This document shows positions 37,925 through 59,869 of a stretch of 64,000 nt of DNA, piece after piece. Where the stretch lies: positions 30,223 through 94,222 of the forward strand of contig MPOS01000011.1 of assembly GCA_001896555.1 (NCBI GenBank), given 5' to 3'. The position numbers were made by a program, and so were the translations under genes. A model generated the notes under the pieces. It saw only the letters and a program-made list of their open reading frames with translations, did not search any database and was not told where the DNA came from. Source of the stretch: Candidatus Phosphitivorax anaerolimi. GTDB lineage: Bacteria; Desulfobacterota; Desulfomonilia; UBA1062. The stretch's first letter is position 1. Each line of letters begins with the position of its first letter.

Positions 37925-38114
37925 GCCCTCTCCGAGAGTCAAGCCCCGAGGCGCGGCACTGGTATAGATTCTTGAGGATGAAGATCAGGCTCTTGAGGCA
38001 GGGAAATTTTTCTTGCCTGTCTCAAGATAATGAGTGAATAGATCGAAGAGACAGTATGTGCAGAAAACAAGTGCAGGTTCGTATGGAGCGGCGGGAATGA
38101 AAGGAGATAAAGGT

Positions 38115-40915: not shown

Positions 40916-40929
40916 GGGGAGAGTGTATT

Positions 40930-44629: not shown

Positions 44630-45712
44630 TCAGCCCCGGGTTTCCTGCGGGATGGTCCTCACCAGCTTCACGCCGATGATCATGGCGGACCCGATGCCCA
44701 CGATGATGACCGGGACCATGTGGAAGAAGTGATAGGCAAGAGTAAGCCCTGCGGCCTCTGTCGCCGGGATGCCGAAGATCATGAGCCCGAACACCCCGCC
44801 CGCCTCCCACAGGCCCCAATATCCCGGAACCGATGGGAGCATGATGAAAAAGCAGATGATGAGCTCCACGGCAAATGCCTGAAGGAACGATATCTGCACT
44901 CCAGGGAAACCGAATGTCAGGAGATACAGCGCCAGGCCGAGCATCGCCCAGAGGGCAAAGGAGAGCAGCAGGCACAGTACAAGGTTCAGGGGACTTTTCA
45001 GGATGTCGAACCCTACGGCGAAGTTATCCAGGAGACAGGTTATTTTCGTACACAGACCTGCCCGGAGCTTTTCCCTGAACGGCTGCTGCGCGAAGAACAT
45101 CATGTCGGGCGTCTTGAGGATGATCCGGTTGAAGACACTTCTCGTCGATGAGAAGCTGATGAGTAATGTGACCACCACGAGGACGAGACTGAACTTGAGC
45201 GTGGCCTTCCAGAGGCCGTCAAGCAGCGCCGGGGTGAGATGATAGGTTGCGAAGGTGATGTCCAGAGATGGATCGATAGGAACGGCGGCCAGTATATAAA
45301 TGAAGAATGAGAGCAGGGCCGCTGCATCGAATATTCTGTCTATTCCCGCCGTGGCGAGCACTTTAGAGAACTCGACGTTTTCCTTCTTGTAAAACACGGC
45401 GGGCCTGGCTATCTCCCCCACGCGGCCCGGGAAGACACTGCTCATCATAAAACCGATCATTACCGGGTGAAAAGCACTCCAGAAGCCGGTTTTTTTCACG
45501 GGCAGCAGGATGAGCTGCCAACGCCACACCCTGAGCACATAGCTCAGAAAAGCCACGAGGAGCGAAGGGATGACCCACCAGTAGTTGATGACCTTCAGAT
45601 AGTCGATGAGCTCCCGCAAGGGGATATTGACAAACGTGAGATAGAGAGCGGCTCCGGAGAAGACAATGCCCGCAATCAGTGAAAAGATAGTTTTTTTATT
45701 CAGTGTGATCAT
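44630..45712 (-). CDS. Lysylphosphatidylglycerol-synthase-TM-like (flippase-like, UPF0104) membrane protein.
   Basis: Polytopic. Segment LRVWRWQLILLPVKKTGFWSAFHPVMIGFMMSSVFPGRVGEIARPAVFYKKE is typical of the LPG_synthase_TM family. I trimmed to the MITLNKK start. Confidence 0.6.
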   Translation of the reverse strand: MITLNKKTIFSLIAGIVFSGAALYLTFVNIPLRELIDYLKVINYWWVIPSLLVAFLSYVLRVWRWQLILLPVKKTGFWSAFHPVMIGFMMSSVFPGRVGEIARPAVFYKKENVEFSKVLATAGIDRIFDAAALLSFFIYILAAVPIDPSLDITFATYHLTPALLDGLWKATLKFSLVLVVVTLLISFSSTRSVFNRIILKTPDMMFFAQQPFREKLRAGLCTKITCLLDNFAVGFDILKSPLNLVLCLLLSFALWAMLGLALYLLTFGFPGVQISFLQAFAVELIICFFIMLPSVPGYWGLWEAGGVFGLMIFGIPATEAAGLTLAYHFFHMVPVIIVGIGSAMIIGVKLVRTIPQETRG

Positions 45713-45941
45713 ACTGCTGCTGCACTCTCCGCCCTTTCCTGAAATTTCTGCATGCAGGTTTCGTCTGCCTTTTTGCCGGGTATTTCGAGCAGATGGTGCC
45801 ATTCCTCCAAAGTATTGGCGTGTAGGGTATACGGCATTCGAGAAAAGAAGCAAGATGTAAATGAAGCTCATGACGCCCGATCGTTCATGCTTTCACTGGA
45901 AAAAAATATGGAGATCGGGTAATGTGTTCGAATATTATTCG

Positions 45942-48287
45942 ATGAAAGTCAGAAATGGGGATTTGAAGATGGGGGCGGGAGTCATCCGGTTTGCCGGCAG
46001 GTATCGAAGCATCATCTGCTGTCTCGTTCTGATTCTATCCACGGCGCTTGCCTATTCCCGCATTGCCGGCAACGACTTCGTCAATTATGACGACCCATAT
46101 CAGGTGACGCAGGAAGATCACGTTCTCGGCGGCCTTACCTGGGAAAACATTCTCTGGTCTTTCGGCCCCGAGGCGCGCTGTTCACCGCTCACATGGATGG
46201 CCTACGCAGCGGGCCATAGCTTGTTCGGGCTGAATCCCGGCATGTTTCATATCATGAGCCTCGTTATCCATATCGCAGGCAGTGTGCTGCTTTTCTCTCT
46301 TCTCCGAAGAATGACCGGCAAGTTCTGGGAGAGCGCCTTCGTGGGCGCGTTGTTCGCCCTGCACCCCATCAATGTCGAGTCCGTCGCATGGGTTGCCGAG
46401 CTGAACAATGTCCTGAGCGGCCTCTTTTTTATGCTGACCCTGCTCCTCTATTCCCGGTACGCGGAGCAGCCGATCTTGAGGAGATACGTTGCAGCACTGC
46501 TGGCGTTCGGCCTCGGGCTGCTTGTCAAGCCGGTGCTCATGACCCTTCCCTTCATTCTGCTTCTGATCGATCTGTGGCCGCTCAAGCGCATTCAGCCGGA
46601 AAGGGATGACAGCAGGCACAACATGTGGGGTATGACCATCCGGGGAGTGCCTCTTTCCCGGATTCTCCTGGAAAAGGTCCCCTTCGCCCTTCTGGCGGCG
46701 GCGTCTCTTATAAGCAATATATATGGGGCGGAAAAGCGCATGGGGTTGTATAGTGCCGATATTGTGCCCATGGGCCTCCGGATTTCCAATGCCCTTGTTT
46801 CGTCCATAAAGTATCTGGGGAAGCTGTTCTGGCCGCATGATCTGACCATTTTTTACCCGTACCCGAGCGCGATCCCTCTGTGGCAGGTGGCAGTCGCTGT
46901 TCTCATACTGGCGCTTTTCACCGTATCGGCGGTGCGCATGGTCTTGAAGCGCCCATACATTCTCGTGGGATGGCTGTGGTTTCTGGCCGGTCTCGTTCCG
47001 TTCCTCGGCATCATCCAGGCCGGCATATGGCCCGAGCTGGCGGACCGCTATGCATATCTCACGTTTATCGGGATCTTTATCGTAATATCATGGGGTGCCT
47101 CTGAGCTGCTGGGAAGATTCAGATACCGCCGCGTTGTCATCACTGCGGCAGGTACGGCAGCAGTTCTCATTTTGACGGCAGCGACATGGAATCAGACCGG
47201 ACATTGGAAAAACAGCGAGACCCTGTTTCGCCATGCGCTCGAGGTGACGGAGAACAATCACCTGGCGCACTACAATCTCGGGTTTTTTCTGCTCGAACAG
47301 GGCAATATGCAGGAAGCCATAAGCCATTTTCGCCGGTCGCTCGAAATCTTGCCCAAAAATCCATCGGTGCTGAACAATCTGGGGCTCGCCCTCTTTTTCG
47401 AGGGGGATATGGATGGCGCTATCAGCGCATATCGCGAGGCTCTCGAGGCTAGCCCGGGGTCTCATATAGCACATGTCAATCTGGGCTATGCATATACACG
47501 AAAGGGAGATGAAGAGAAGGCGATCGAGCACTTTATCAGGGGATTGCAGTCTGATCCTCACGACAGCAAGGCCCGGAACTGTTTGAGCGATCTTTTCCTG
47601 CGGTCCGGGAGAATTGATGAAGCTCTCGAGCACTATCATGAGTCACTGCGGCTCAATCCGCACCAGCCGTTCGTTCATAACAGCCTTGGGCATGCCTATA
47701 TGAAAAAAGGCAACATGAGGAAAGCCGTTGAATATTATGAGAATGCGGTCAGGCTCGATCCCCGTGACAGCGAGGCGAAAAACAATCTCATAAACGCCAG
47801 AGCCACCCTGGCAAAAAGCGAAGAACTGATCGCTCAGGTAAAGGCAACGATACAGCAGAGGCCGCAGGATCCCCGGCTGTACATGCACCTGGGAGACCTT
47901 TATTTCCGGCAGGGAGCATACGATGAAGCCATTACAGAGTACCAGAAGTCGCTTTCGATTCAGCACGAATCCGTCAATGCACTATATGGGCTTGCTGTCG
48001 CCTATTCTCAGACAAAGGACTATGGAATGGCGCTGGAGTCGCTGCAGAGCATCCTTCGACTCATGCCGGACAGTCCGGACGTTCACTACAATATCGCCTG
48101 CATCTACGCCAAACAGAGCAAGGTAGACGAATCAATTTATTGGCTCGACAAATCCATTCAAAAGGGTTTTAACAACTGGAACCTGATCAGGACAGACCCG
48201 GATCTGCATTCCATTCGGGGCACGGAAGGCATGCAGAGGCTCGTCCGGGAAAACGAGGCGATCGGCGCAGGGCGGAGGGCACAGTAG
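45942..48287 (+). CDS. TMTC/PMT-like membrane glycosyltransferase-fold protein (DUF1736) with a C-terminal TPR array, paralog 1.
   Basis: N-terminal polytopic domain with FVNYDDPYQVTQ, FGLNPGMFHIMSLVIH and FALHPINVESVAWVAELNNVLSGLFFMLTLLLY. About 9 C-terminal TPR units. The start is uncertain (45861, 45942 or 45969). Confidence 0.75.
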   Translation: MKVRNGDLKMGAGVIRFAGRYRSIICCLVLILSTALAYSRIAGNDFVNYDDPYQVTQEDHVLGGLTWENILWSFGPEARCSPLTWMAYAAGHSLFGLNPGMFHIMSLVIHIAGSVLLFSLLRRMTGKFWESAFVGALFALHPINVESVAWVAELNNVLSGLFFMLTLLLYSRYAEQPILRRYVAALLAFGLGLLVKPVLMTLPFILLLIDLWPLKRIQPERDDSRHNMWGMTIRGVPLSRILLEKVPFALLAAASLISNIYGAEKRMGLYSADIVPMGLRISNALVSSIKYLGKLFWPHDLTIFYPYPSAIPLWQVAVAVLILALFTVSAVRMVLKRPYILVGWLWFLAGLVPFLGIIQAGIWPELADRYAYLTFIGIFIVISWGASELLGRFRYRRVVITAAGTAAVLILTAATWNQTGHWKNSETLFRHALEVTENNHLAHYNLGFFLLEQGNMQEAISHFRRSLEILPKNPSVLNNLGLALFFEGDMDGAISAYREALEASPGSHIAHVNLGYAYTRKGDEEKAIEHFIRGLQSDPHDSKARNCLSDLFLRSGRIDEALEHYHESLRLNPHQPFVHNSLGHAYMKKGNMRKAVEYYENAVRLDPRDSEAKNNLINARATLAKSEELIAQVKATIQQRPQDPRLYMHLGDLYFRQGAYDEAITEYQKSLSIQHESVNALYGLAVAYSQTKDYGMALESLQSILRLMPDSPDVHYNIACIYAKQSKVDESIYWLDKSIQKGFNNWNLIRTDPDLHSIRGTEGMQRLVRENEAIGAGRRAQ

Positions 48288-48392
48288 ACCGAATCGTGGA
48301 GGTACTATGCTGTGGCCCCTCTGTTCACGAATGGCGTTTTCCGATAAGACCGGGGCATATGAAGTGTTCGGCTGCCTACAGGAGAACATGCT

Positions 48393-49511
48393 ATGAAAAA
48401 GGCCCTCATTACGGGTATCACCGGGCAGGACGGGGCATACCTCGCAGAATTTCTGCTGGAGAAGGGTTACACGGTCCACGGGATAAAGAGACGATCCTCG
48501 AGCTTCAACACCTACCGGGTCGATCATCTCTATCACGATCCGCATGAAGAAAACGTCAAGTTCCACATGCATTACGGGGATCTCACCGATGCCACAAATA
48601 TCATCAGGATCATCCAGGACGTCGAGCCCGACGAGATCTACAACCTGGGGGCGCAGAGCCATGTTCAGGTTTCCTTCGAAACCCCGGAATACACCGCCCA
48701 GGCCGACGCCCTGGGCACCCTGAGGATCCTGGAGGCATTGAGAATACTGAACATGGGGGGCAAGGTGCGGTTTTACCAGGCATCCACCAGCGAATTGTTT
48801 GGCAAGGTCCGGCAGATTCCCCAGGATGAGAATACGCCGTTCTATCCCAGGAGCCCTTATGGGGTGGCAAAACTCTATGCCTACTGGATAGCCGTCAATT
48901 ACCGCGAGGCGTACGGCATGTTTGCCTGCAACGGTATTCTCTTCAACCATGAATCCCCGGTTCGAGGCGAGACATTCATAACCAGGAAGGTCACCCGGGC
49001 TGCCAGCCGGATTGCGCTGGGGCTTCAGGATACCCTGTATATCGGCAATCTCGATGCCAGAAGGGACTGGGGGCATGCCAGGGATTATGTTATCGCCCAG
49101 TGGCTTATCCTGCAGCAGGACGTGCCGGATGACTACGTCATTGCTACAGGCATCCAGCATTCGGTACGGGATCTCTGCGCACTCGCCTTCTCCAAGGTCG
49201 GGATCGGGATAGAATGGGAAGGCGCCGGGGTGGAGGAGCAGGGTATCGCAAGCAGTGTCCTTCACCGGGACAGTGATATGGTAGTGAGGCCCGGCGATGT
49301 AGTCGTGAGGATCGATCCGAGATATTTCAGGCCGACCGAGGTGGATACCCTGCTCGGCAACCCCGGGAAGGCAAAGGAAAAACTCGGATGGGAGGCGAGG
49401 ATCAGCTTCGAGGATATGATCAGTGAGATGGTCGAACATGACCTGGCCGATGCCCGCCGTGATATCCTGTGTCTGAACAGCGGGTTCAGGGTGTTGGAAG
49501 GCAGAGAATGA
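48393..49511 (+). CDS. gmd: GDP-mannose 4,6-dehydratase
   Basis: [40 protein letters not shown], YxxxK and extended-SDR motifs. Length 372 aa. Confidence 0.9.
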
Positions 49512-49609
49512 TTCCCGGGTTTCAGGAAAATGTGTTTCAGGAGAGCGAGTTTCTTCTTATCCTGCGGGAATGGTTCTGACATGCCGGCGGCAGCGATTTT
49601 CGGTATGAA

Positions 49610-50590
49610 TTGACCGATACGGGTATGGCGATGGATAGAGATTCAAAGATTTTCATTGCGGGGCACACCGGTCTCGTCGGCGCCGCCGTTCAGCGCAGAC
49701 TGGAGTCGGAAGGTTTCGGCAATCTTCTCGTCCGTGCGCACCCCGAGCTGGATCTGACCAGGCAGAGAGAGGTCGAGGATTTCTTCAGGCAGGAGAAGCC
49801 CGAATATGTCTTCCTCTGTGCTGCCAGGGTGGGTGGAATACTGGCCAACGCAACATATCCGGCGGAATTCATCTATGACAATATCATGATCGCGGCCAAT
49901 GTCATCCATGCCGGATTTCGTTTCGGGGTGAAGAAGCTTTTAAACCTGGGCTCATCCTGCATCTATCCAAAGCTTGCACCGCAGCCGCTGAAAGAGGAGC
50001 ACCTGCTCACCGGCATCCTGGAGTCGACCAACGAGCCGTACGCCATTGCAAAGATAGCCGCCATAAAACTCTGCCGTTACTACAACACGCAATACGGCAC
50101 GAATTTTCTCTCGGTCATGCCGACCAACCTTTACGGCCCGCACGATAACTTCGACCTCGAGACATCTCATGTTCTGCCGGCGCTTATCAGACGATTTTAT
50201 GAGGCAAAGAGGAGCTCGGCGTCACAGGTGACGCTCTGGGGAACAGGGGGCCCCCTGAGGGAGTTTCTTTATGTCGATGATCTGGCGGATGCATGTGTGC
50301 ATCTCATGAAAAACTACGATGCGAAAAGCATCGGGGAATTCATCAACGTTGGAACCGGCAACGATATAGCGATCAGGGACCTTGCGGAGATGGTTTCCCG
50401 GATCGCCGGATACGGCGGCAAAGTTCTCTGGGATTCGGGCAAGCCGGACGGAACCCCGCAGAAGCTCCTGGATATATCGAGGATTCTGGCAACAGGGTGG
50501 TCTCCGAGCACGGGCCTGGCAGAAGGCATCGAGAGGACCTTCCAATGGTATGTTGAAGAAAGGCGGCGCGAGCTGGCCCGGCACGAATAG
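49610..50590 (+). CDS. fcl: GDP-L-fucose synthase (GDP-4-keto-6-deoxymannose 3,5-epimerase/4-reductase).
   Basis: KIFIAGHTGLVGAAVQRRL and PTNLYGPHDNFDLETSHVLPALIRRF. About 320 aa. Confidence 0.85.
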   Translation: MTDTGMAMDRDSKIFIAGHTGLVGAAVQRRLESEGFGNLLVRAHPELDLTRQREVEDFFRQEKPEYVFLCAARVGGILANATYPAEFIYDNIMIAANVIHAGFRFGVKKLLNLGSSCIYPKLAPQPLKEEHLLTGILESTNEPYAIAKIAAIKLCRYYNTQYGTNFLSVMPTNLYGPHDNFDLETSHVLPALIRRFYEAKRSSASQVTLWGTGGPLREFLYVDDLADACVHLMKNYDAKSIGEFINVGTGNDIAIRDLAEMVSRIAGYGGKVLWDSGKPDGTPQKLLDISRILATGWSPSTGLAEGIERTFQWYVEERRRELARHE

Positions 50591-50775
50591 CCGTGCAGGC
50601 TCACTTTCAAAAGAAAAATCCATAACCGGCCGGAAGTTCTTTCTCAGGGTATGATCAGGCGCGATGAGAACAATGGCGAAGCAATTAATATAATGATATA
50701 TATTATTCGATGAGATACGTTGATATGGAGGCGGCGGCTTTCAATGAGAAACAGTGAGATGCGTCAGGAGCGCAC

Positions 50776-51723
50776 ATGGCTATTTCCGTAGTGATACCGG
50801 TGTATAACAGCGGGAAGATTTTGCCCCTGCTGGTTGAGCGGCTGGAGCCCGTGCTGAAGGCCCTCGGTCCGACCTACGAGCTCATACTGGTGAACGATGG
50901 AAGCGCCGACGGCAGCTGGAATGCCATTGAAGACCTTGCCCTGCAGCATACCTGGATCTGCGGTATCAATCTCATGCGCAACTATGGCCAGCACAACGCC
51001 CTGTTGTGCGGAATCAGGGCTTCCCGTTACGACACTATCGTTACCATGGATGACGACTTGCAGAATCCTCCTGAGGAGATCCCGGTAATGATCCGGAAGC
51101 TTCGGGAGGGATACGATGTAGTGTACGGCACACCGATGAGAGAGCGGCACGGGCTGATGAGAGACATCTCCTCGCAGATCACCAAGCTGGCCCTGAAGAC
51201 CGCCATGGGCATCGAGACCGCACGAATGGCGAGCTCTTTCCGTGTTTTCAGGTCGAAGATTGCGGAAGCCTTTGCGGATTACAAGGGGTCGTTCGTATCC
51301 ATCGATGTGCTCCTGACATGGGGAACAACCCGTTTTGCAGCCATACCGGTGAAGCACGATGTCCGGCAGAGCGATGCGTCGAACTATACCTTCAAGAAGC
51401 TCATCACCCATGCGTTCAACATGATGACGGGATTCAGCACATTGCCGCTGCAGTTGGCAAGCATCCTCGGCTTCTTCGTCACTTTTTTCGGAATAGGCAT
51501 TTTCATTTATGTGATCGCCAGCTACATTATCCATGGAGGAAGTGTTCCGGGCTTTGCTTTCCTGGCGTGCATCATCGTCATATTCTCCGGAACCCAGTTG
51601 CTCGTATTGGGAATAATCGGGGAATATCTCGCACGGGTGCATTTCCGGAGCATGGACCGTCCGTCAAGTGTTGTCAGTGAAACAGTCAGGAATTCTTCAG
51701 TAGGAAAACAAGAGCAGAGATGA
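50776..51723 (+). CDS. GT2 polyprenyl-phosphate glycosyltransferase (GtrB/ArnC/DPM1-like) with two C-terminal TM helices.
   Basis: ISVVIPVYNSG...ELILVNDGSADGS...TMDDDLQNPPEEIP and the C-terminal membrane anchor. Confidence 0.8.
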   Translation: MAISVVIPVYNSGKILPLLVERLEPVLKALGPTYELILVNDGSADGSWNAIEDLALQHTWICGINLMRNYGQHNALLCGIRASRYDTIVTMDDDLQNPPEEIPVMIRKLREGYDVVYGTPMRERHGLMRDISSQITKLALKTAMGIETARMASSFRVFRSKIAEAFADYKGSFVSIDVLLTWGTTRFAAIPVKHDVRQSDASNYTFKKLITHAFNMMTGFSTLPLQLASILGFFVTFFGIGIFIYVIASYIIHGGSVPGFAFLACIIVIFSGTQLLVLGIIGEYLARVHFRSMDRPSSVVSETVRNSSVGKQEQR

Positions 51724-52457
51724 GTCCGGATAGTGCCAAAATAAAATTATCCGACATCGACGAGGAAAGGTTCGGAATAAGAACGGCAAAATCTTCCTGC
51801 ACGACAAGGGAAGACATCCCCGAACTATTGGAGTTCTGCGAGGCGCACCAGGTCGAATTGCTCATAGCCCGGTGTCCCGCAGCTGATATCGAGGCCGTTC
51901 AGCGCATGGAAAGGCACGGGTTTTTTATCACCGATACGCTCGTCTACTATTCGTTCTTCCTGAAAAATAAACCTATTCCGGAAGACGCTGCAGGAATCCG
52001 AGTGAGACCGGTCAGCCCGGGAGAAGAGTTCGTGGTGAAGGATATCGCCCAAGGATCATTCCAGGGTTACAGGGGACACTACCATGCAGACCCCAGGCTC
52101 GACAGAAAGAAGTGCGATGATGTCTATACGGATTGGGCATATCGCTCCTGCTTCCGGGGAAGCCTGGCAAACGAGGTCATGGTCGCGGAATATGATTCTA
52201 CGCCTGCCGGTTTCGCTACGCTGAGGATCAACAGCGACTCGGAAGGAGAAGGTGTCCTCTTTGGAGTTGCACCGGTCTTTCAGGGGAAGGGTATTTACCG
52301 CTCTTTGATGATCGGCGGGTTGACATGGTGTGTTTCCCTGGGTCTCGATGTCATGATTGTCTCGACTCAGATCGTCAATACAGCCGTTCAGAAGGTCTGG
52401 ACCAGACTGGGGTTCGAGCCAAGCCATTCTTATTACACTTTTCACAAGTGGTTTTGA
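51720..52457 (+). CDS. GNAT-family N-acetyltransferase, WecD-like (dTDP-4-amino-4,6-dideoxyhexose acetyltransferase-like).
   Basis: About 245 aa with a C-terminal acetyl-CoA-binding-like segment VLFGVAPVFQGKGIYRSLM. Lies immediately upstream of the WecE-like aminotransferase. The assignment is by context and length. Confidence 0.5.
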   Translation: MSPDSAKIKLSDIDEERFGIRTAKSSCTTREDIPELLEFCEAHQVELLIARCPAADIEAVQRMERHGFFITDTLVYYSFFLKNKPIPEDAAGIRVRPVSPGEEFVVKDIAQGSFQGYRGHYHADPRLDRKKCDDVYTDWAYRSCFRGSLANEVMVAEYDSTPAGFATLRINSDSEGEGVLFGVAPVFQGKGIYRSLMIGGLTWCVSLGLDVMIVSTQIVNTAVQKVWTRLGFEPSHSYYTFHKWF

Positions 52458-52628
52458 GAGCTTGGAGCATTTGTATGATTGCGTGGCATGAGACCGGTTC
52501 AGGGCCGTACAGGACACTAGAAAGCCTGAGTCACCGGCAAAGGGTACAAGCATTCATTTTCGTTACGTTACGGTCCGATGTCAGGCAGAAAACCGCCTGA
52601 CATCGGTTCCATAACCGGGAAGAGAAGA

Positions 52629-53507
52629 ATGAAGCAATGTCTCGCATGCAGCAAGCGTTTCATTTCAGAAGACTGGGTTTGCCCCCGATGCGGTAATATC
52701 CCGGAGAGCAGGAACGGTTATCTTTCCTTCACACAGCCGGCAGCGGATACGGGCCGGGGTTTCGACTCCGGCAGTTATCGTCATCTTGCCCGTCTCGAGG
52801 CGAAGAATTTCTGGTTCAGGTCGCGCAACCGATTGTTGATATGGGCCCTTCGAAGATGTTTTCCGGATGCGGAGCGGTTTCTCGAGATCGGCAGCGGCAC
52901 AGGGTTCGTTTTATCCGGTATACGCCGTGAATTCCCGAAAATGAAAATAACCGGCAGTGACATCTATCCCCAGGGGCTCGATTATGCCAGAGAGCGGGTG
53001 TCCGATGCGGCATTTCTGCACATGGACGCCTGCGCGATTCCCTTTGAAGATGAATTCGACGTGATCGGGGCATTTGATATTCTCGAGCATATCCAAGACG
53101 ATGCTTTGGCGCTGCGCGAGATGTACCGTGCGGTTCACAGGGGAGGCGGGATTGTTCTCACCGTCCCCCAGTATATGTGGCTCTGGAGCGCTCAGGACAA
53201 GGCAGCGTTTCACGTTCGGAGATACTCCCGGGGTCGGCTGCTGAAGAGGGTGGAGGAAGCAGGATTCACCGTGGGGTATATGACATCTTTCATCACCTTC
53301 CTGTTTCCTCTCCTGGCGGTTTCCAGACTGTGTTCACGCTGGATGAACCGGCATGACGGGGCACATGACTGGACACGGGAATTGAATCTGAATCCTGCAG
53401 CAAACACTTTATTCGAGGCAATCTGTAATGCAGAGCTGTTTTTTGTGAAAAAAGGAGTGAAAATGCCCGCAGGAGGGTCTCTCCTCTGTATAGGCATAAA
53501 GGAGTAG
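52629..53507 (+). CDS. Class I SAM-dependent methyltransferase with an N-terminal zinc ribbon.
   Basis: CLACSKRFISEDWVCPRCGNIP, then the SAM motif FLEIGSGTGFV. Confidence 0.7.
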   Translation: MKQCLACSKRFISEDWVCPRCGNIPESRNGYLSFTQPAADTGRGFDSGSYRHLARLEAKNFWFRSRNRLLIWALRRCFPDAERFLEIGSGTGFVLSGIRREFPKMKITGSDIYPQGLDYARERVSDAAFLHMDACAIPFEDEFDVIGAFDILEHIQDDALALREMYRAVHRGGGIVLTVPQYMWLWSAQDKAAFHVRRYSRGRLLKRVEEAGFTVGYMTSFITFLFPLLAVSRLCSRWMNRHDGAHDWTRELNLNPAANTLFEAICNAELFFVKKGVKMPAGGSLLCIGIKE

Positions 53508-53510
53508 TCC

Positions 53511-54686
53511 ATGAAAAACGAATCCCTGGTGAGAATGCCTTTCAATAAGCCCTTCATTGCAGGCAAGGAGCTGTACAACATAGCGCAGGCCGTCATAAAC
53601 GGGCATCTTGCCGGAGACGGGCCCTTTACGAAACAGTGCCATGCGTGGCTGGAAAAACGCCTGGGATGCTCCAAGGCGCTGCTTGTCCACTCCTGCACGG
53701 CTGCACTGGAAATGGCCGCCATGCTCTGCGATATAGGCAGCGGAGACGAGGTTATCATGCCCTCGTTCACCTTTGTCTCCACGGCGAATGCCTTTGTCCT
53801 GCGAGGCGCCGTCCCGGTGTTTGTGGATATCCGTCCGGACAATCTCAATCTGGACGATAAAAAGATCGAGCAGGCAATAACATCAAAAACAAAAGCCGTC
53901 GTGCCCGTTCACTATGCCGGCGTTCCCTGCGAAATGGACGCAATCATGCGCATTGCCGATGTGCATGATCTATTTGTGGTGGAAGACGCTGCCCAGGCAC
54001 TGTTCTCGTCATACAAGGGCAGGCTTCTCGGCACCATCGGGCATTTCGGGTGCCTCAGCTTCCACGAGACGAAGAATATCATCAGCGGCGAGGGCGGTGC
54101 TTTGCTGGTGAACGACAAGAGGTTTGTCGAGCGCGCAGAGATCATCAGGGAAAAGGGGACCAATCGATCCCGGTTCTTCCGGGGCGAGGTGGACAAGTAC
54201 ACATGGGTCGATATCGGATCGTCGTATCTTCCGAGCGAGCTGATCGGCGCTTTTCTGTATGCCCAGATGGAGAACGCGAGCACCATCATCTCCGCTAGGA
54301 GGAGGATCTTCGAACGGTACTACAACCTGCTCCGTCCTCTCGAGGATGAGGGCGTCCTCCGCCTTCCGTTTGTAGAAAGCGAATGTGCGGGCAACGGCCA
54401 TATGTTCTATATCGTCATGAGATCGTTGGATGAGCGGACAAGCCTGCTGGAGCATTTGAAGAAAGAAGGGATTCTGGCCGTGTTCCATTATGTGCCGCTC
54501 CACTCGTCACCTGCCGGTCGGAAGTACTGCCGGGCAAGCGGATCCATGGAAGTCACGGACGATCTGAGCGGCAGGGTGCTGAGGCTCCCCATGTATTACG
54601 AGATGGGCGAGGACGATATCCATCGAGTGGTGGAAAGTATCAAGAGATACTTTCGCATCATGCGGGAAAAGAGCCATGTACTTTAA
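53511..54686 (+). CDS. DegT/DnrJ/EryC1-family PLP aminotransferase (WecE-like dTDP-4-keto-6-deoxyhexose 4-aminotransferase).
   Basis: MPFNKPFIAGKELYNIAQAVINGHLAGDGPFTKQCHAWLEKRLG and SFHETKNI (the PLP lysine). Length 391 aa. Confidence 0.85.
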   Translation: MKNESLVRMPFNKPFIAGKELYNIAQAVINGHLAGDGPFTKQCHAWLEKRLGCSKALLVHSCTAALEMAAMLCDIGSGDEVIMPSFTFVSTANAFVLRGAVPVFVDIRPDNLNLDDKKIEQAITSKTKAVVPVHYAGVPCEMDAIMRIADVHDLFVVEDAAQALFSSYKGRLLGTIGHFGCLSFHETKNIISGEGGALLVNDKRFVERAEIIREKGTNRSRFFRGEVDKYTWVDIGSSYLPSELIGAFLYAQMENASTIISARRRIFERYYNLLRPLEDEGVLRLPFVESECAGNGHMFYIVMRSLDERTSLLEHLKKEGILAVFHYVPLHSSPAGRKYCRASGSMEVTDDLSGRVLRLPMYYEMGEDDIHRVVESIKRYFRIMREKSHVL

Positions 54687-54731
54687 CAGCACTTTCGAAG
54701 AGTAGCTCAGTGTTTTCTCACAGGAGATGCA

Positions 54732-56192
54732 ATGGAAGAGGTTAACCGGACGCAGGGGCACATGACGGCATCGGCGCTCCGCTATAGAAAACAGCGGCAG
54801 GAACATTGGTCTTCGCTCGCGCGCAGGATGGATACGTGGAAATCAAGGGGCGTGCATTACCATGAGAGAATTACGGAAGTATATCGGTTTCTCGTGAGCC
54901 CGGGACAGAAGGTCATCGAGATCGGCTGTGGAAAAGGAGATCTCCTCGCATCACTCGAGCCGAGCATCGGTGTGGGCGTAGATTTTTCAGAAGAAATGGT
55001 CGACCGCGCCAGACGGAAATACCCCGAACTTCGTTTCATGGCCTGCGATGCGCACGAGATCGATCTCGATGAAAAATTCGATGTGATCATCCTCTCCGAC
55101 CTGGTGAACGACCTGTGGGACGTCCAGGCTGTTCTGAGCCGGCTCGACCGGCTCTGCTCTCCCAGGACCCGGATCGTCATCAACACCTACAGCCGGGTGT
55201 GGGAGCTTCCGCTGCGGCTCACGCAGAAGCTCGGCCTCTCCACTCCGCTGCTTGCCCAGAACTGGCTCACCGTGGAGGATATCTGCAATCTGCTCCATCT
55301 GGCCGGATATGAAGACATCAGGCACTTCAACGAGATTCTCTGGCCCGTGAAAACGCCCTTTCTGGCGGGATTTTTCAACCGGCACCTCGTGAAAATATGG
55401 CCGTTCTCCTGCTTTTCCCTGTCCAATTTCATCATCGCGAGGAAACGGCCGGAAAAAGATGCGGGGGCAAAGGAACCTCTGGTCTCGGTTATCGTGCCTG
55501 CCCGCAACGAGGCCGGCAATATCGACGAGATCTTTGCCCGCGCCCCGGAGATGGGCGCGGGAACGGAGCTCGTCTTCGTGGAGGGAAATTCCGGGGACAA
55601 CACCTACGAGGCGATCGCCAAAGCCATGGCGAAACATCCTCAGAGGAGGTGCAGGCTGCTCCGGCAGACAGGCACGGGCAAGGGCGACGCCGTCAGGCTG
55701 GGCTTCAGGGAGGCGTCAGGGGATGTTCTCATGATTCTCGACGCCGATATGACCGTGCCTCCGGAAGACCTGCCGCGGTTTTACGAGGCGCTCCGGTCGG
55801 GCGAAGGCGAGTTCATCAACGGCGTGCGCCTTGTCTATCCCATGGAGAAGCAGGCCATGCGCTATGCGAACCTCCTGGGAAACAAGTTTTTCTCCCTGGC
55901 CTTTTCCTGGCTTCTGGGCCAGCCGATCAAGGACACCCTCTGCGGCACCAAGGTGCTTAGCAGGGCAAACTATGAGAAGATCGAGAAGAACAGGGCCTAC
56001 TTCGGCGATTTCGACCCGTTCGGCGATTTCGATCTCCTCTTCGGTGCGGCGAAGCTGAATCTGAAGATCGTGGAAATGCCCATCAGATACCGGGAGCGCA
56101 GATACGGCGAAACGAATATCGACCGGTGGAGGCACGGGATGATCCTGCTCCGGATGGTTCTGTTTGCGATGAGGCGGATCAAGTTTTTCTAA
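54732..56192 (+). CDS. Bifunctional fusion: N-terminal class I SAM methyltransferase plus C-terminal GT2 (DPM1-like) glycosyltransferase.
   Basis: MTase motif VIEIGCGKGDL. GT2 motifs SVIVPARNEAGNI, LVFVEGNSGDNT and ILDADMTVPPEDL. Confidence 0.75.
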   Translation: MEEVNRTQGHMTASALRYRKQRQEHWSSLARRMDTWKSRGVHYHERITEVYRFLVSPGQKVIEIGCGKGDLLASLEPSIGVGVDFSEEMVDRARRKYPELRFMACDAHEIDLDEKFDVIILSDLVNDLWDVQAVLSRLDRLCSPRTRIVINTYSRVWELPLRLTQKLGLSTPLLAQNWLTVEDICNLLHLAGYEDIRHFNEILWPVKTPFLAGFFNRHLVKIWPFSCFSLSNFIIARKRPEKDAGAKEPLVSVIVPARNEAGNIDEIFARAPEMGAGTELVFVEGNSGDNTYEAIAKAMAKHPQRRCRLLRQTGTGKGDAVRLGFREASGDVLMILDADMTVPPEDLPRFYEALRSGEGEFINGVRLVYPMEKQAMRYANLLGNKFFSLAFSWLLGQPIKDTLCGTKVLSRANYEKIEKNRAYFGDFDPFGDFDLLFGAAKLNLKIVEMPIRYRERRYGETNIDRWRHGMILLRMVLFAMRRIKFF

Positions 56193-56956
56193 TGAAGGTC
56201 TTGTGCAGGCAATGGAGAGGAACAGTGGCCAGACCGCAGAATGAAATAGAGCACGGCAGAAAGCTCTCCCGGAATGACCCCGAGCTGATATGGGGCTGGG
56301 GGACGCCGGCGGGCAGGATAAGGGCCCGGCGCCGCGCCGCTCTCATAGCCGAAGGGGCCCGGCTGGGGCCTCATGTCAGGGCCCTGGAGATCGGGTGCGG
56401 CACCGGTGTTTTTACAGAATATTTTGTGAAAAGCGGAGCACACATCGTCGCTGTGGATATTTCGTCCGACCTCCTGGAAGAGGCGAGAGAAAGAGGCCTG
56501 CCGGAAGACAGGGTGCAGTTCATCGAAAAAGCGTTCGAAGAGTGCGAGGTGGACGGCCCCTTCGATGCCGTGATCGGGTCATCGATTCTGCATCACCTCG
56601 ATCTTGCCGGGTCACTTCCCCGGATATTTTCTCTTCTCAGGCCGGGCGGGTGGATGAGCTTCGCCGAGCCGAACATGCTGAACCCCCAGATCTTTTTCCA
56701 GAAGAACATCCCCTGGCTGAAAGAGCGGCTGGGCGACTCTCCCGATGAGACCGCATTCGTGAGGCATTCCCTCAAGAGGAGATTGGAATCGTCCGGGTTC
56801 GACAGGGTGGCAATTACCCCGTTCGACTGGCTGCATCCCCTCACGCCGGCGAGAGTCATTCACATTGTCTCGAAAATCGGGGCATTTCTGGAGGCGGCCC
56901 CTCTGGTGCGGGAGTTCGCCGGATCACTGTACATCCGGTGCAGGAGGCCGGCGTGA
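56192..56956 (+). CDS. Class I SAM-dependent methyltransferase.
   Basis: ALEIGCGTGVFTEYF motif. The ATG overlaps the upstream TAA (TAATG). Confidence 0.7.
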   Translation: MKVLCRQWRGTVARPQNEIEHGRKLSRNDPELIWGWGTPAGRIRARRRAALIAEGARLGPHVRALEIGCGTGVFTEYFVKSGAHIVAVDISSDLLEEARERGLPEDRVQFIEKAFEECEVDGPFDAVIGSSILHHLDLAGSLPRIFSLLRPGGWMSFAEPNMLNPQIFFQKNIPWLKERLGDSPDETAFVRHSLKRRLESSGFDRVAITPFDWLHPLTPARVIHIVSKIGAFLEAAPLVREFAGSLYIRCRRPA

Positions 56957-57636
56957 AAAAGGTTGAGGAGACGGGAATCAGGGAGAAGGGGCGGGCGAAG
57001 CTCCGGCTGCTGCCACTGAGCCACTACCGGGGCATAGACTCGGGAGACCCCATCCGGTTCTACTTCTGGCCTGTCCTCGGTTCCCTTTACCGGCGCAGGG
57101 TCGAGCTCTGTCTGGAAGAGCTCTGCGGGGGAGAAAAGATCCTTGAGGTGGGGTTCGGGTCCGGTATTACCTTTCTCAATCTCGCACAACTCTACGGCAC
57201 TGTTTGCGGAGTCGATCCGAACCCCTTGGTCGGCGACGTTCGTGCCGCGTTTGCGTCTGTCGGAATACACGCACATCTGCTGCGGGGGAGCGTTCTGGAG
57301 ATCCCCTATCAGGACAGCTGCTTCGACGCGGTTCTTCTCATCAGCATTCTCGAGCATCTCAAGCCGAACGAGCTGGACAGGGCCTTCGCCGAGATACGGA
57401 GGGTGCTCAGGCAGGGAGGGCAGGCCGTGTATGGGGTCCCGGTGGAACGGCCTTTCATGGTCATGATGTTTCGTCTCCTTGGATACAATATCAGAAGGCA
57501 CCATTTTTCGACGCAGAAAGATGTGGCCGACGCGGCTGGAAGATTTCTGACAAAGGTCCGCATCACTCCTATGTACGGCATTCACCGCCTTCTGGGGGCT
57601 GTGTACGAGGTCGGGCATTTCAGAAAGGCAGTCTGA
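56953..57636 (+). CDS. Class I SAM-dependent methyltransferase.
   Basis: ILEVGFGSGITFLNL motif. GTG start overlapping the upstream TGA, with RBS CAGGAGG. Confidence 0.65.
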   Translation: MKKVEETGIREKGRAKLRLLPLSHYRGIDSGDPIRFYFWPVLGSLYRRRVELCLEELCGGEKILEVGFGSGITFLNLAQLYGTVCGVDPNPLVGDVRAAFASVGIHAHLLRGSVLEIPYQDSCFDAVLLISILEHLKPNELDRAFAEIRRVLRQGGQAVYGVPVERPFMVMMFRLLGYNIRRHHFSTQKDVADAAGRFLTKVRITPMYGIHRLLGAVYEVGHFRKAV

Positions 57637-57649
57637 AAGGCAGAGGATC

Positions 57650-59869
57650 ATGAAAGCGAATGACCGCCGGAAAATACTGGTAATCCTTCTGCTGGCAGTG
57701 CTGTCGGCAGCGGTCTACTGGCAGGTGGCAGGCCATGGCTTCATCAACATGGACGATGCGATGTACGTTGCGGACAACCCGCACGTGCAGAAAGGCATTA
57801 CGGGGGAGGGGCTGTTCTGGGCCTTCGGGTTCGCCGACAGGGCATACTGGCATCCCGTCAGCTGGCTGTCCCACATGCTGGACTGCGAGCTGTTCGGCCT
57901 GGATCCGGGAATGCACCATCTCGTGAACGTTTTTTATCACATCATCAACGCGACGGTCCTGTTTCTCGCATTGAACATGATGACAGGGGCGTTGTGGCGA
58001 AGCGCCTTCGTCGCCGGAATGTTCGCGATGCACCCTGTCAATGTGGATACCGTTGCCTGGATTGCCGAGCGGAAGAACCTCGTGAGCACCCTGTTCTGGA
58101 TGCTCACGCTCCTGAGCTATGCCTGGTATGTTCGCAGGCAGACCACCTTCAGGTATCTTTCGGCCTTCGGGCTCTTCATTCTGGGCATACTCTCCAAGCC
58201 CATGCTCGTCACGCTCCCCTTTGTCCTTCTGCTTCTCGACTACTGGCCGCTGCAAAGGATGCCGCTCGGGTTCGGTCGCATCCGGGAGGACGGTGGTGGA
58301 GAAGGCCTGTTCTCGAGGCGTGGGCTGTCAGCCATGGCGAGACTCGTGTCCGAGAAGCTTCCCTTTCTCGCCGTGGCCCTGGTTGCCATCCATGTCTCGA
58401 TGATTTCCATGCACGGGCACGTGGACGTCATATCCACCGATGCCGTGAGCATGAAGCTCCGCTTGGAAAACGCCGTGGTTGCATATGTGCACTATCTCTG
58501 GAAAATGCTGTGGCCGTGGAACCTGACCGTCTACTACCCCTACCCCAAAAGCGTGCCGCTTGCCCACGTGATCTTCGCAGGCGCTGCCGTGGCTGCGGTC
58601 ACGGTCATGGTCCTTTCCAAGATCCGGAAATACCCTTATCTGGCGGTAGGCTGGCTCTGGTACCTGGGCGCCCTGGTGCCGGTGAGCGGGATCATCCAGG
58701 CAGGTCTGTGGCCGGCCATTGCCGAGCGGTGGATGTATGTCCCCGGCATCGGGCTGTTCATCATGGCCTCCTGGGGTGTGCGCGATCTTCTCTCGCGGCT
58801 GGAGAGCGGCAGGCAGCTGTACCGGTATGCCTCGCTCGCCGTGATCATGCTGCTTGCATTGCTCACGTTCCGCCAGGCAGGGTTCTGGAAAGATGATTTC
58901 ACGCTGTTCTCTCATGCCGTCTCCGTCAGTGAACGCAACAGCGTGGCTCACGGGAACCTGGCCGACTGGCACCTGGCGCAGGGTTCATACGAGGATGCGC
59001 ACAACCATTATCTCAAGGCCTTGGAGGCGAACCCCCTCGATCCGCTCATACACCGCAACTTTGCCGTAGCCCTGCTCAGGATGGGGAGATACGGCGAGTC
59101 CGTGCATCATTTCCGCATAGCTGCGAAGAAGTTCGCGCATGACGAGGACGTGCTCATCGGCCTGGGAACAGCCCTGGCAAGGCTGGGAGATCTGTCAGGG
59201 GCCATCGGGTCTTTCACCAGGGCACTGGACATAAATCCAGGCAATGCCCAGACCCATTTCAAGCTGGCCGTGGTCCTCGGTGAATCGGGCCGGATCGATG
59301 ATGCGGTGGATCACTATCGGGAGGCTTTGAGGCTGGAGCCGGGGTTCGAACAGGCCGGGAAGAATCTCGATCATCTGCTGGCTTTGTACGGGCAGCTCGA
59401 CTCGGCTGTCGCGCTGCTGCGGGAGAGGCTTCGCGATGAGCCGGGCAATGCGTCCCTCCATTACAGCCTGGGGGGCCTGCACGAGAAGAAAGGAAACTAT
59501 GCCGACGCCTCGGACGCGTACCGGAAATTCCTGTCTCTGAATCCCGACGGCGTTCAGGCCATGGAGCGGCTGGCCTTCATCCATTCCAGGGAAAACGACT
59601 TGCCCAGCGCCCTGTTCTGGCTCAGGGAAATGCTCAAGCGTGACCCGGGCAATCCCGGAATTCACTACAACATCGCCTGCGTGTACGCCAGGCAGGGAAA
59701 GGCGGACGAAGCACTGAAATGGCTCGGCAGCGCCGTGGAAAAAGGCTTTTCCGACCGAGGGCTCCTGGAGAGCGATCAGGATCTCGAGAGCCTCCGCGCC
59801 ACCGCACAATTTCGGGAGCTGGTGAGCAGGCTGGGATCGGAAGCGCCGGACGGCGGAACAGACGAGTAG
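57650..59869 (+). CDS. TMTC/PMT-like membrane protein (DUF1736) with a C-terminal TPR array, paralog 2.
   Basis: FINMDDAMYVADNPHVQ, FGLDPGMHHLVNVFYH and FAMHPVNVDTVAWIAERKNLVSTLFWMLTLLSY are colinear with paralog 1. C-terminal TPRs. Confidence 0.75.
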   Translation: MKANDRRKILVILLLAVLSAAVYWQVAGHGFINMDDAMYVADNPHVQKGITGEGLFWAFGFADRAYWHPVSWLSHMLDCELFGLDPGMHHLVNVFYHIINATVLFLALNMMTGALWRSAFVAGMFAMHPVNVDTVAWIAERKNLVSTLFWMLTLLSYAWYVRRQTTFRYLSAFGLFILGILSKPMLVTLPFVLLLLDYWPLQRMPLGFGRIREDGGGEGLFSRRGLSAMARLVSEKLPFLAVALVAIHVSMISMHGHVDVISTDAVSMKLRLENAVVAYVHYLWKMLWPWNLTVYYPYPKSVPLAHVIFAGAAVAAVTVMVLSKIRKYPYLAVGWLWYLGALVPVSGIIQAGLWPAIAERWMYVPGIGLFIMASWGVRDLLSRLESGRQLYRYASLAVIMLLALLTFRQAGFWKDDFTLFSHAVSVSERNSVAHGNLADWHLAQGSYEDAHNHYLKALEANPLDPLIHRNFAVALLRMGRYGESVHHFRIAAKKFAHDEDVLIGLGTALARLGDLSGAIGSFTRALDINPGNAQTHFKLAVVLGESGRIDDAVDHYREALRLEPGFEQAGKNLDHLLALYGQLDSAVALLRERLRDEPGNASLHYSLGGLHEKKGNYADASDAYRKFLSLNPDGVQAMERLAFIHSRENDLPSALFWLREMLKRDPGNPGIHYNIACVYARQGKADEALKWLGSAVEKGFSDRGLLESDQDLESLRATAQFRELVSRLGSEAPDGGTDE

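Follow-up and report, generated by a model that had tools for sequence, protein, structure and literature searches.

TMTC1-4, which form CAZy family GT105, are O-mannosyltransferases of cadherins and protocadherins that use Dol-P-Man as donor. A comparable architecture was described in P. aeruginosa, where TfpW, a protein of 11 transmembrane (TM) helices whose TPR domain is periplasmic and whose DDX motif is essential, O-glycosylates the group IV pilin from polyprenyl-P-arabinose (bioRxiv 10.1101/2020.04.19.049825). Gtr systems in turn combine a GT2 lipid-P-sugar synthase, a flippase and a GT-C transferase (PMC11127046), and in streptococci (GtrB/PgtC2, PgfS/PgfM1) this three-component logic O-glycosylates Ser/Thr-rich regions of proteins (PMC12041528). 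The three-component logic is therefore already known, as is the GT-C+TPR architecture, from TfpW and the animal TMTCs. In a literature search on the function of bacterial TMTC-like or GT-C+TPR proteins, TfpW was the one functional study found; an earlier sequence-only reading of the DNA analyzed here overlooked it in calling the family uncharacterised in Gram-negative bacteria.

We here analyze a 64,000-nt stretch ("the window") of Candidatus Phosphitivorax anaerolimi, a Desulfomonilia bacterium of anaerobic digesters (GCA_001896555.1, contig MPOS01000011.1, forward-strand positions 30,223-94,222). Most members of the GT-C+TPR family stand alone in the genome, so that their neighbours give no hint at the donor. 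What makes this locus and its orthologues informative is that genes for the probable donors lie beside those of the transferases, and the function of bacterial TMTC-like enzymes thereby becomes open to concrete assays with defined lipid-linked sugars and mass shifts.

A conserved cluster of twelve genes

The conserved cluster spans ~15 kb (44630-59869) and comprises 12 genes, all on the + strand except the PF03706 gene (Table 1). From 45942 to 59869, the genes are separated by short intergenic gaps or have overlapping reading frames. Every gene that the sequence-only reading had listed in this island was found in place and on the + strand, and the two TPR membrane proteins said to bracket it, here termed TprA and TprB, are indeed paralogues, with 37% identity across 741 columns (full length; E = 2e-166). 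Scanning 44-61 kb for promoter and terminator consensus sequences gave hits not above those in shuffled sequences.

Table 1. Genes of the conserved cluster, with positions in the window
Product	Position	Strand	Basis
Flippase-like polytopic membrane protein	44630-45712	-	PF03706 LPG_synthase_TM / TIGR00374
TprA: GT-C domain then TPRs	45942-48287	+	PMT_2, TPR matches
Gmd, GDP-mannose 4,6-dehydratase	48393-49511	+	TIGR01472
Probable Fcl, GDP-L-fucose synthase	49610-50590	+	NF047922
ArnC/GtrB-type GT2, 315-aa	50776-51723	+	ArnC 9hwj, GtrB 5ekp matches
GNAT N-acyltransferase, weakly WecD-like	51720-52457	+	PF00583
MT1, class I SAM methyltransferase	52578-53507 (called start 52629)	+	Methyltransf_11/23/25
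WecE orthologue, dTDP-4-keto-6-deoxy-D-glucose 4-aminotransferase	53511-54686	+	NF008687
SAM methyltransferase + DPM1/AglJ-like GT2 fusion	54732-56192	+	Pfam Glycos_transf_2 + methyltransferase domains
MT3, class I SAM methyltransferase	56225-56956 (ORF opens 56126)	+	Methyltransf_25/12/11
MT4, class I SAM methyltransferase	56953-57636 (ORF opens 56938)	+	Methyltransf_11
TprB: GT-C domain then TPRs	57650-59869	+	TprA paralogue

Comparative synteny, which had been proposed as a check on the island, revealed that the cluster is kept as orthologues in other organisms. The gene set recurs in loci L007 and L091 with 46-80% identity and in changed order. L007 holds orthologues of Gmd (80% identical), Fcl (68%), MT1 (46%), the methyltransferase/GT2 fusion (74%) and MT3 (72%), and L091 holds those of Fcl (68%) and the fusion (68%) together with a weak MT4 counterpart. 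The GT2-GNAT pair is kept in both, and in L007 the MT1 orthologue is flanked by GNAT and DegT. Genes of the TprA clade adjoin GT2-GNAT-(MT)-DegT, and those of the TprB clade, among them the orthologues L091_671 (55% identical to TprB) and L007_775 (45%), come after the fusion. The fusion is also found directly beside GT-C+TPR genes in L015, L020, L027 and L063, and the linkage between GT-C and synthase genes is kept in L007, L009 and L091. Seen across three other organisms, this synteny suggests a pair of parallel donor-transferase branches; the pairing within each we infer from gene order only.

Across the wider family this linkage is weak: a detectable GtrB/DPM1-like GT2 lies no more than 10 kb away in only 7-11 of 80 loci, and two of the five close orthologues stand alone. 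Up to seven tandem GT-C+TPR paralogues occur in a single locus. Clustered at 50% identity, the family is very large, with 28,171 matching clusters at E<=1e-30, rising to 104,181 at E<=1e-3, and GT-C+TPR proteins are spread over Desulfobacterota, Planctomycetota, Verrucomicrobiota, Acidobacteriota, Nitrospinota and other phyla. Named examples carry the NCBI label "tetratricopeptide repeat protein", and homologues are labelled "protein O-mannosyl-transferase" by JGI. Gene identities and synteny, with the GT-C fold and the motif conservation described below, form the established part of this analysis.

Architecture and predicted catalytic site of TprA and TprB

The GT-C domain of TprA covers residues ~1-424 with 11 TM helices, and behind it come nine TPRs closed by an end cap; in the AF2 model, the 11 membrane helices precede nine TPRs at an exact 34-residue spacing. 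TprA matches PMT_2 (PF13231) at 33.6 bits (gathering threshold 26.1), and 11 of 17 family members have a PMT_2 match in the Pfam scan. The N-terminal domain of TprB gave no Pfam match at E<=1, PMT_2 included, and no Pfam match was found for the N-terminal domains of three other TPR-fused membrane proteins from the orthologous clusters, L009_748, L009_758 and L007_679. The DUF1736 label previously attached to both proteins could not be upheld: a search at E<=1 detected PF08409 neither in the two Tpr proteins nor in the 17 homologues. Features of PMT/GT39 enzymes (PF02366, a MIR domain in loop 5, a C-terminal 4TM module) were likewise not found in TprA or TprB.

Searching PDB sequences with the TprA N-terminal domain, either as a single sequence or as a 17-sequence profile, retrieved no match, and the GT-C fold is evident by structure comparison only. 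Foldseek with the full-length TprA model returned TPR proteins only (OGT, SPINDLY and designed TPRs), which is uninformative on the catalytic domain, and we therefore built a model of the N-terminal domain alone. With this model, probability-1.0 matches support a GT-C fold, the best being the protein-modifying GT-Cs Pmt4, STT3B and Pmt2, with scores above ArnT. As modelled, the TprA N-terminal domain has the polytopic fold common to STT3, PMT, ArnT and ALG enzymes. The fold expected by the sequence-only reading is thus supported, and the acidic motif, for which it had expected DE, is DD.

This motif lies in the first periplasmic loop, as NYDD48-51 in TprA and NMDD33-36 in TprB. In homologue alignments of 17 and 35 sequences, D50 of TprA is invariant and D51 is kept in 90% or more of the sequences; H141-P142, K196 and R369 are also invariant. 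These residues match the positions of the TMTC/ArnT motifs, namely DD (EL1), D/E (EL2), K (EL3) and the Arg of AERV (EL5) (PMC7801869). TprB carries NMDD, HPVNVD, SKP and AERW. The density of K+R is 12/50 in the predicted cytoplasmic loops versus 7/128 in the periplasmic loops, a bias that, by the positive-inside rule, would place the catalytic motifs and the TPRs on the periplasmic side; the first loop and the C-terminal TPRs are accordingly predicted to be periplasmic.

Predicted donors, flippase and acceptors

Gmd scores 581.2 bits against TIGR01472 (cut-off 415). The probable Fcl, for which metagenome contigs give a start at 49625, reaches 472.3 bits against NF047922, just below the cut-off of 500, over model positions 2-306 of 308. 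MT4 matches Methyltransf_11 at 63.9 bits. A WecD-like acetyltransferase and a WecE-like aminotransferase had been named in the sequence-only reading; the second assignment stood, with 615.8 bits against NF008687 (cut-off 375), and the first held weakly, the GNAT protein scoring 58 bits against the WecD model PRK10975 (cut-off 219), aligned over its full length. The GNAT domain itself is matched at E = 7.4e-11 (PF00583), and a PDB search with this protein gave no match. Neither rmlA nor rmlB was present among the candidate ORFs of the window scanned with Pfam and NCBIfam (1-64 kb), so that the dTDP branch would rely on RmlA/RmlB encoded elsewhere.

Since Gmd is adjacent and rmlAB are absent from the window, we also asked whether the DegT enzyme might be a GDP-perosamine synthase that uses the product of Gmd. 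This is biochemically possible but disfavoured by similarity, with 151 bits to perosamine synthase versus 475 to E. coli WecE (4piw).

By family, both GT2s are predicted polyprenyl-phosphate sugar synthases. The 315-aa GT2, whose gene shares 4 bp with the GNAT gene that follows, aligns along its whole length, TM helices included, with ArnC 9hwj (E = 6e-51; residues 3-308 against 10-318) and with GtrB 5ekp (E = 2e-40); it contains DDDLQNPPEE and two C-terminal hydrophobic helices. In the fusion protein, a methyltransferase (~residues 35-200) precedes a GT2 domain (~residues 250-475) that resembles the Pyrococcus Dol-P-Man synthase 5mlz (E = 5e-19), and the AglJ model scores 99.8 bits. Together with the Asp pair and the conserved cluster, these families support the earlier suggestion of a DPM1/GtrB-like donor synthase serving a periplasmic GT-C enzyme.

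The PF03706 gene, which did not appear in the earlier list of island genes, is conserved with the cluster. It lies upstream of TprA and divergent from the cluster, with an ORF reaching 45871 and a product called as 360 aa on metagenome contigs. The protein scores 145.8 bits in Pfam and 84.1 bits against TIGR00374 (cut-off 43.2). An orthologue of 64% identity adjoins the TprA orthologue in L007, and the gene is present with two of the four clusters examined. PF03706 is a family of predicted lipid flippases (PMC12713373; bioRxiv 10.1101/2022.03.11.483950), and no flippase of the GtrA, SMR or MATE families was found in the cluster. We regard the PF03706 protein as a candidate flippase for lipid-phosphate-sugar donors.

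With moderate confidence, we propose that the cluster encodes two parallel three-component branches of extracytoplasmic glycosylation, for which the acceptor would, by analogy, most likely be Ser/Thr on folded envelope proteins. In the first branch, WecE and the GNAT protein, possibly with MT1, would convert dTDP-4-keto-6-deoxyglucose to a Fuc4NAc-type dTDP-4-acylamido-4,6-dideoxyhexose; on the cytoplasmic side of the membrane, the ArnC/GtrB-type GT2 would load this sugar onto undecaprenyl phosphate, and TprA would use the flipped lipid-P-sugar in the periplasm. In the second branch, GDP-L-fucose made by Gmd and Fcl would be turned by the methyltransferase/DPM1-like GT2 fusion into polyprenyl-P-fucose, with the fused methyltransferase, MT3 or MT4 probably O-methylating the fucose, and TprB would transfer the fucose-type sugar in the periplasm. 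The PF03706 protein may flip the lipid-phosphate-sugar donors. Both Tpr enzymes would act as GT-Cs whose first periplasmic loop holds the catalytic Asp pair, and the periplasmic TPR superhelix may select the acceptor, the analogy for protein Ser/Thr being with TMTC1-4 and TfpW. What we infer here are the sugar identities past the level of enzyme family, a flippase function for the PF03706 protein, and the kind of acceptor.

The repeat-rich proteins encoded immediately upstream had been suggested as acceptors. These proteins, a PD40-type beta-propeller of 503 aa and three DUF6160 paralogues, are not rich in Ser/Thr (S+T 9.7-16.5%) and are not conserved beside the cluster in other organisms; the suggestion found no support. 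No acceptor candidate was found among the conserved neighbours of the cluster. A scan for type IV pilin motifs found none in the window, and pilin genes adjoin family members in L035 and L062 only.

The same donors might instead serve glycans or lipids (lipid A/core, O-antigen, exopolysaccharide or another polymer), as with ArnT and the Gtr GT-Cs, with the TPRs forming a scaffold to export or assembly machinery. TPR domains also occur with polysaccharide machineries, and their presence is therefore no proof of a protein acceptor. Nevertheless, we consider a glycan or lipid acceptor somewhat less likely than a protein. The scanned ORFs of the 64-kb window (Pfam, NCBIfam) contain no Wzx, Wzy, WaaL, Wzz, initiating phosphoglycosyltransferase or other O-antigen, LPS or EPS genes, so that the conventional O-antigen locus named earlier as a possible refutation was not found there; likeness to ECA is limited to WecE and, weakly, WecD. 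The protein-modifying GT-Cs outscore ArnT structurally, the sole characterised GT-C+TPR enzymes (TMTC1-4 and TfpW) modify proteins, and the runs of tandem paralogues fit acceptor-specific protein recognition at least equally well. An improbable alternative is that TprA and/or TprB, instead of adding single sugars, act in the periplasm as polymerases that draw on lipid-monophosphate donors to make an oligo- or polysaccharide of 4-acylamido-dideoxyhexose and/or methyl-fucose, like Emb/Aft and as proposed for TfpW. That the Tpr proteins are not glycosyltransferases for the island sugars, being fortuitous neighbours or PIG-U-like lipid-binding scaffolds while the sugars feed a conventional cytoplasmic pathway, is very unlikely in view of catalytic-type residues that are invariant or nearly so family-wide, of partners kept in orthologous clusters despite rearrangement, and of two GT2s typed as lipid-phosphate sugar synthases, enzymes that require a GT-C to consume what they make.

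Returning to glycosylation of envelope proteins, we suggest tentatively, and at less than even odds, that TprA and TprB are bacterial counterparts, possibly relatives, of TMTC. They would carry out periplasmic protein O-glycosylation with single unusual sugars (4-acylamido-4,6-dideoxyhexose and methylated fucose), moved from undecaprenyl-phosphate onto folded envelope proteins, and the family of >28,000 clusters may then represent a major unrecognised bacterial class in which tandem paralogues specify acceptors. If the acceptors are indeed proteins, TMTC-type, domain-specific O-glycosylation would extend to bacteria, which bears on the origin of the eukaryotic enzymes.

Comparison with known systems

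The Arn pathway differs in several respects. The aminotransferase here is an orthologue of WecE (475 bits) and not of ArnB (174 bits); there is no ArnA, ArnD or ArnE/F; TPRs replace the periplasmic domain of ArnT; and the locus shows no link to lipid A. The Gtr systems share the synthase/flippase/GT-C logic. However, the GT-Cs of the Gtr and streptococcal systems are TPR-free members of the GtrC, GT136 or YfhO families, and their flippases are of the GtrA/SMR or MATE type, whereas here the sole candidate is the PF03706 protein. Unlike Gtr loci, this one combines two synthases and two transferases with several methyltransferases.

TfpW, by its published description, resembles the Tpr proteins in architecture and in its polyprenyl-monophosphate sugar, and it modifies a protein. 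It differs in that tfpW lies directly downstream of pilA, while the window contains no pilin gene, and in its sugar, D-Araf, which is made by DprE1/E2-type genes and whose polymerisation has been proposed for TfpW.

Likeness to the TMTCs extends to the predicted topology, both having a cytoplasmic N-terminus, an 11-TM GT-C domain and extracytoplasmic C-terminal TPRs, and, by the published motifs, to DD in EL1, K in EL3 and A(D/E)R before TM10. An HP..(E/D) motif lies at the TM3/EL2 boundary in both ("LLFAVHPIHT" in TMTC3, "ALFALHPINV" here), and both have a weak relation to PMT_2. In contrast, PF08409, which covers the EL4 loop, has no match here (0/17), the conserved "DW" of TMTC EL4 being replaced by "YPYP", and the predicted donors are undecaprenyl-P 4-acylamido-dideoxyhexose and (methyl)fucose rather than Dol-P-Man.

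Gene content of the cluster and its surroundings

Eleven same-direction genes with short gaps or overlaps, together with one divergent gene, occupy 44.6-59.9 kb of the window. Family scans bore out the parts list of the sequence-only reading, in which two TMTC/PMT-like membrane proteins with TPRs (here TprA and TprB) bracket an island that may serve periplasmic protein or glycan modification; the divergent PF03706/TIGR00374 gene upstream of TprA was absent from that list. No Wzx, Wzy, WaaL, RmlA or RmlB was found among the ORFs scanned in the 64-kb window. The remaining genes are housekeeping and signalling genes (Era, Der, TldD, PtsI, histidine kinases), along with SelA, a patatin and an MMPL/LolA-like/DUF1302 set. 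Exact-sequence look-ups showed that window sequence recurs in anaerobic-digester metagenomes. The G+C content over 46001-54000, the first half of the cluster, is 0.53-0.55 as compared to 0.58-0.63 in the flanks, and no mobile-element genes were seen. Further upstream, the Gly/Asp-rich proteins together with the C39-peptidase-like gene and beta-barrels have the look of a module for secretion or surface fibres that is as yet uncharacterised.

Table. Features of the cluster and its upstream region (window positions)
Feature	Position	Strand	Family evidence or description
MMPL/RND-type transporter, LolA-like protein, DUF1302 outer-membrane protein	23341-28792	+	putative lipid/lipoprotein export set
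937-aa regulator, beside the preceding set	29038-31851	-	six PAS domains, LuxR-type HTH
three secreted Gly/Asp-rich proteins	35738-36784, 36899-37924, 38034-38999	+	two are clearly paralogous; one has a DUF6160 (PF19657) match and a weak match to a 'FilA pilus' model (38.5 bits)
C39-peptidase-like gene	38996-39808		
two outer-membrane beta-barrels	39842-40915, 40912-42615		Phenol_MetA_deg, FadL/Toluene_X
PD40/TolB-type propeller, 503 aa, signal peptide; between outer-membrane protein genes and cluster	42930-44441	+	~12 repeats 'FSPDSxHxAY...DGKE..YD'; TmcD_fam 157 bits in 5 stretches
PF03706/TIGR00374 'flippase-like' membrane protein	44630-45712	-	Pfam and NCBIfam family scans
TprA	45942-48287	+	PMT_2 33.6 bits (cut-off 26.1), then TPRs
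Gmd	48393-49511	+	TIGR01472 581 bits (cut-off 415)
Fcl	49610-50590	+	NF047922 472 bits (cut-off 500)
GT2	50776-51723	+	315 aa, ArnC/GtrB type
GNAT	51720-52457	+	WecD model 58 bits (cut-off 219)
methyltransferase	52578-53507	+	class I SAM
WecE	53511-54686	+	NF008687 616 bits (cut-off 375)
methyltransferase (MT) + GT2 fusion	54732-56192	+	GT2 domain DPM1/AglJ-like
two methyltransferases	ending 57636	+	class I SAM
TprB	57650-59869	+	TprA paralogue

Fold and conserved residues of TprA and TprB

TprA and TprB are paralogous end to end (37% identity, E 2e-166). Their earlier label as DUF1736 proteins did not hold, with no match to Pfam DUF1736 in either protein or in any of 17 homologues (E<=1); the TprB membrane domain had no Pfam match at all, and PDB sequence searches with the TprA membrane domain gave no match. 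The GT-C (membrane glycosyltransferase) fold suggested alongside that label fared better. AlphaFold models of TprA built on homologue alignments were confident, both at full length (pLDDT 86.9, pTM 0.80) and for the N-terminal 432 residues (pLDDT 81.4, pTM 0.84), and had 11 membrane helices, with protein-modifying GT-Cs as the best structural matches. By predicted fold and conserved motifs, TprA and TprB are GT-C enzymes. Since the density of lysine and arginine is 12/50 in loops assigned as cytoplasmic and 7/128 in those assigned as periplasmic, the N-terminus is placed in the cytoplasm and the TPRs in the periplasm. In TprA there are nine TPRs, spaced by exactly 34 residues and followed by a 'TPR end-of-group' cap.

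Residue conservation was read from two homologue alignments (17 sequences, N-terminal; 35 sequences, full-length), in which invariant or near-invariant residues were located in periplasmic loops: D50 and D51 ('NxDD') straight after TM1, H141-P142..V145-(E/D) after TM3, K196, R280, Y291 and P298 (the last three in the long TM7-TM8 loop), and A-(D/E)-R369 ahead of TM10. A 'D-x-W-P-L-x-R' motif (TprA residues 210-216, 46569-46589, and the TprB equivalent), predicted to lie where TM6 ends on the cytoplasmic side, is invariant in 35/35 aligned homologues; the periplasmic-loop TMTC motifs that the consulted section of PMC7801869 summarises do not include it.

Donor-sugar enzymes and conserved gene order

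The 315-aa GT2 aligns over its full length, both C-terminal membrane helices included, with solved ArnC (9hwj, E 6e-51) and GtrB (5ekp, E 2e-40), and is by family a putative polyprenyl-phosphate sugar synthase. The GT2 half of the fusion is closest to the Pyrococcus dolichol-phosphate-mannose synthase 5mlz (E 5e-19). With 475 bits to E. coli WecE as compared to 174 to ArnB and 151 to perosamine synthase, the aminotransferase is, judged by sequence, a genuine WecE orthologue; by this orthology its substrate should be dTDP-4-keto-6-deoxyglucose, though the window lacks rmlAB. The GNAT resembles WecD loosely. GtrA, SMR and MATE genes are all absent. PF03706, the flippase domain of MprF, has been put forward as a lipid flippase in GpgF and 'PplT' proteins (PMC12713373; bioRxiv 10.1101/2022.03.11.483950); this family role, and the adjacency of a 64%-identical orthologue to the TprA orthologue in locus L007, make the PF03706 protein a reasonable but unproven candidate flippase.

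The complete gene set is found on two of six same-species contigs, the other four extending part-way upstream. Comparative synteny, a check proposed in the sequence-only reading, showed that the cluster recurs in three orthologous loci, with enzymes 46-80% identical to those of the window. The TprA orthologue P0004 (L007) neighbours GT2-GNAT-MT-DegT-Gmd-Fcl-MT/GT2 fusion-MT-TPR protein, in a locus where the PF03706 gene, a second GT2 paired with a hexapeptide acyltransferase and a third TPR protein are also found; P0016 (L091) has an Fcl-like gene, an MT/GT2 fusion and a TPR protein, with TprA-like preceding GT2-GNAT-DegT; and P0002 (L009) has hexapeptide acyltransferase-DegT-GT2-MT flanked by further TPR membrane proteins. 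Two other orthologues stand alone, and no non-enzymatic gene common to the cluster and its orthologous clusters was found. Further TPR-fused polytopic proteins in L009 (6894-9140 and 13075-15351, both -) and L007 (13678-15717, -) have membrane domains with no Pfam match; those of L009_748/758 show no BLAST relation to TprA/TprB and carry an 'IDEGYH' motif after TM1, while that of L007_679 is 22-29% identical to TprA/TprB. These proteins may represent additional, unclassified GT-C families.

The membrane-domain identity matrix separates a TprA clade (53-61% identity), which adjoins GT2-GNAT-DegT every time, from a TprB clade (45-55% identity), which lies downstream of the MT/GT2 fusion every time; the fusion also directly adjoins GT-C+TPR genes in L015, L020, L027 and L063. 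Based on these neighbourhoods we propose two branches, one in which an amino-dideoxyhexose would pass through the ArnC-like GT2 to TprA, and another in which GDP-fucose would pass through the MT/DPM1-like GT2 to TprB. Gene order is the sole basis on which we infer this donor-transferase pairing. The fold, the motifs and the conservation of gene order lend support to the enzymatic logic put forward earlier, a lipid-phosphate-sugar synthase plus a GT-C.

In the wider family, matches to the membrane-domain profile number 28,171 clusters (50% identity) at E<=1e-30 and 104,181 at E<=1e-3, spread over many diderm phyla. A detectable GtrB/DPM1-like GT2 lies within 10 kb in 7-11 of 80 loci from other species, so that the informative clustering belongs to this Desulfobacterota subgroup and not to the whole family. 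The cluster is a useful way into a very large uncharacterised GT-C+TPR family. Tandem paralogues (2-7) occur in 16 of the 42 loci at least 18 kb long; arrays of 5-7 were seen in L072 (3389-19135), L020 (4004-18489) and L058, from a Planctomycetota MAG, a Smithellaceae chromosome and Ca. Udaeobacter, and in L020 the MT/GT2 fusion, a WecE-like gene and a GtrB-like GT2 are interspersed among the paralogues.

Possible acceptors and relation to known systems

We hypothesize that the TprA/TprB system modifies proteins. This is favoured by the only characterised GT-C+TPR enzymes (TMTC1-4, TfpW) acting on proteins, by the protein-modifying nature of the best structural matches, by streptococci, where GtrB and a GT-C O-glycosylate proteins (PMC12041528), and by pilin genes adjoining a family member in L062. 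In this Acidobacteriaceae MAG locus, a GT-C+TPR gene has three type IV pilin genes in tandem as divergent neighbours (7207-9606, -; 10001-11242, +), and in L035 another family member has one pilin (2928-3314) 2 kb upstream, both reminiscent of pilA-tfpW. Alternatively, the acceptors may be glycans or lipids, as suggested by the parallel of the gene set with the Arn pathway, by the polysaccharides that most bacterial three-component systems decorate (PMC11127046), and by the TPRs that polysaccharide export proteins also carry. As for which proteins would be modified, the secreted proteins upstream, speculatively named as acceptors before, gained no support: the PD40 propeller and DUF6160 paralogues show neither Ser/Thr enrichment nor conservation with the cluster, and the propeller gene has no conserved counterpart beside L007, L009 and L091.

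Eisenhaber et al. (PMC7801869) identified motifs in TMTC1-4 and rationalised them on ArnT, PglB and STT3 structures; these are a DD in the first extracytoplasmic loop (EL1), an EL2 acidic residue pairing with an EL3 Lys, and the phosphate-binding Arg of 'AERV'. The conserved Tpr loop residues match them one-to-one. The 'DW' of the DUF1736 loop is missing and 'YPYP' stands in its place, consistent with the failed PF08409 match. P. aeruginosa TfpW, which combines 11 TM helices with a TPR domain in the periplasm and an essential DDX motif, modifies pilin from a polyprenyl-P-Araf donor (bioRxiv 10.1101/2020.04.19.049825), so that the earlier description of such proteins as uncharacterised in Gram-negative bacteria needs qualifying. 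The system of the cluster works like a TMTC/TfpW/Arn hybrid. We do not file it under the TMTC family, because the defining DUF1736 signature was searched for and not found; the cluster is a fresh variant of the already known three-component glycosylation paradigm.
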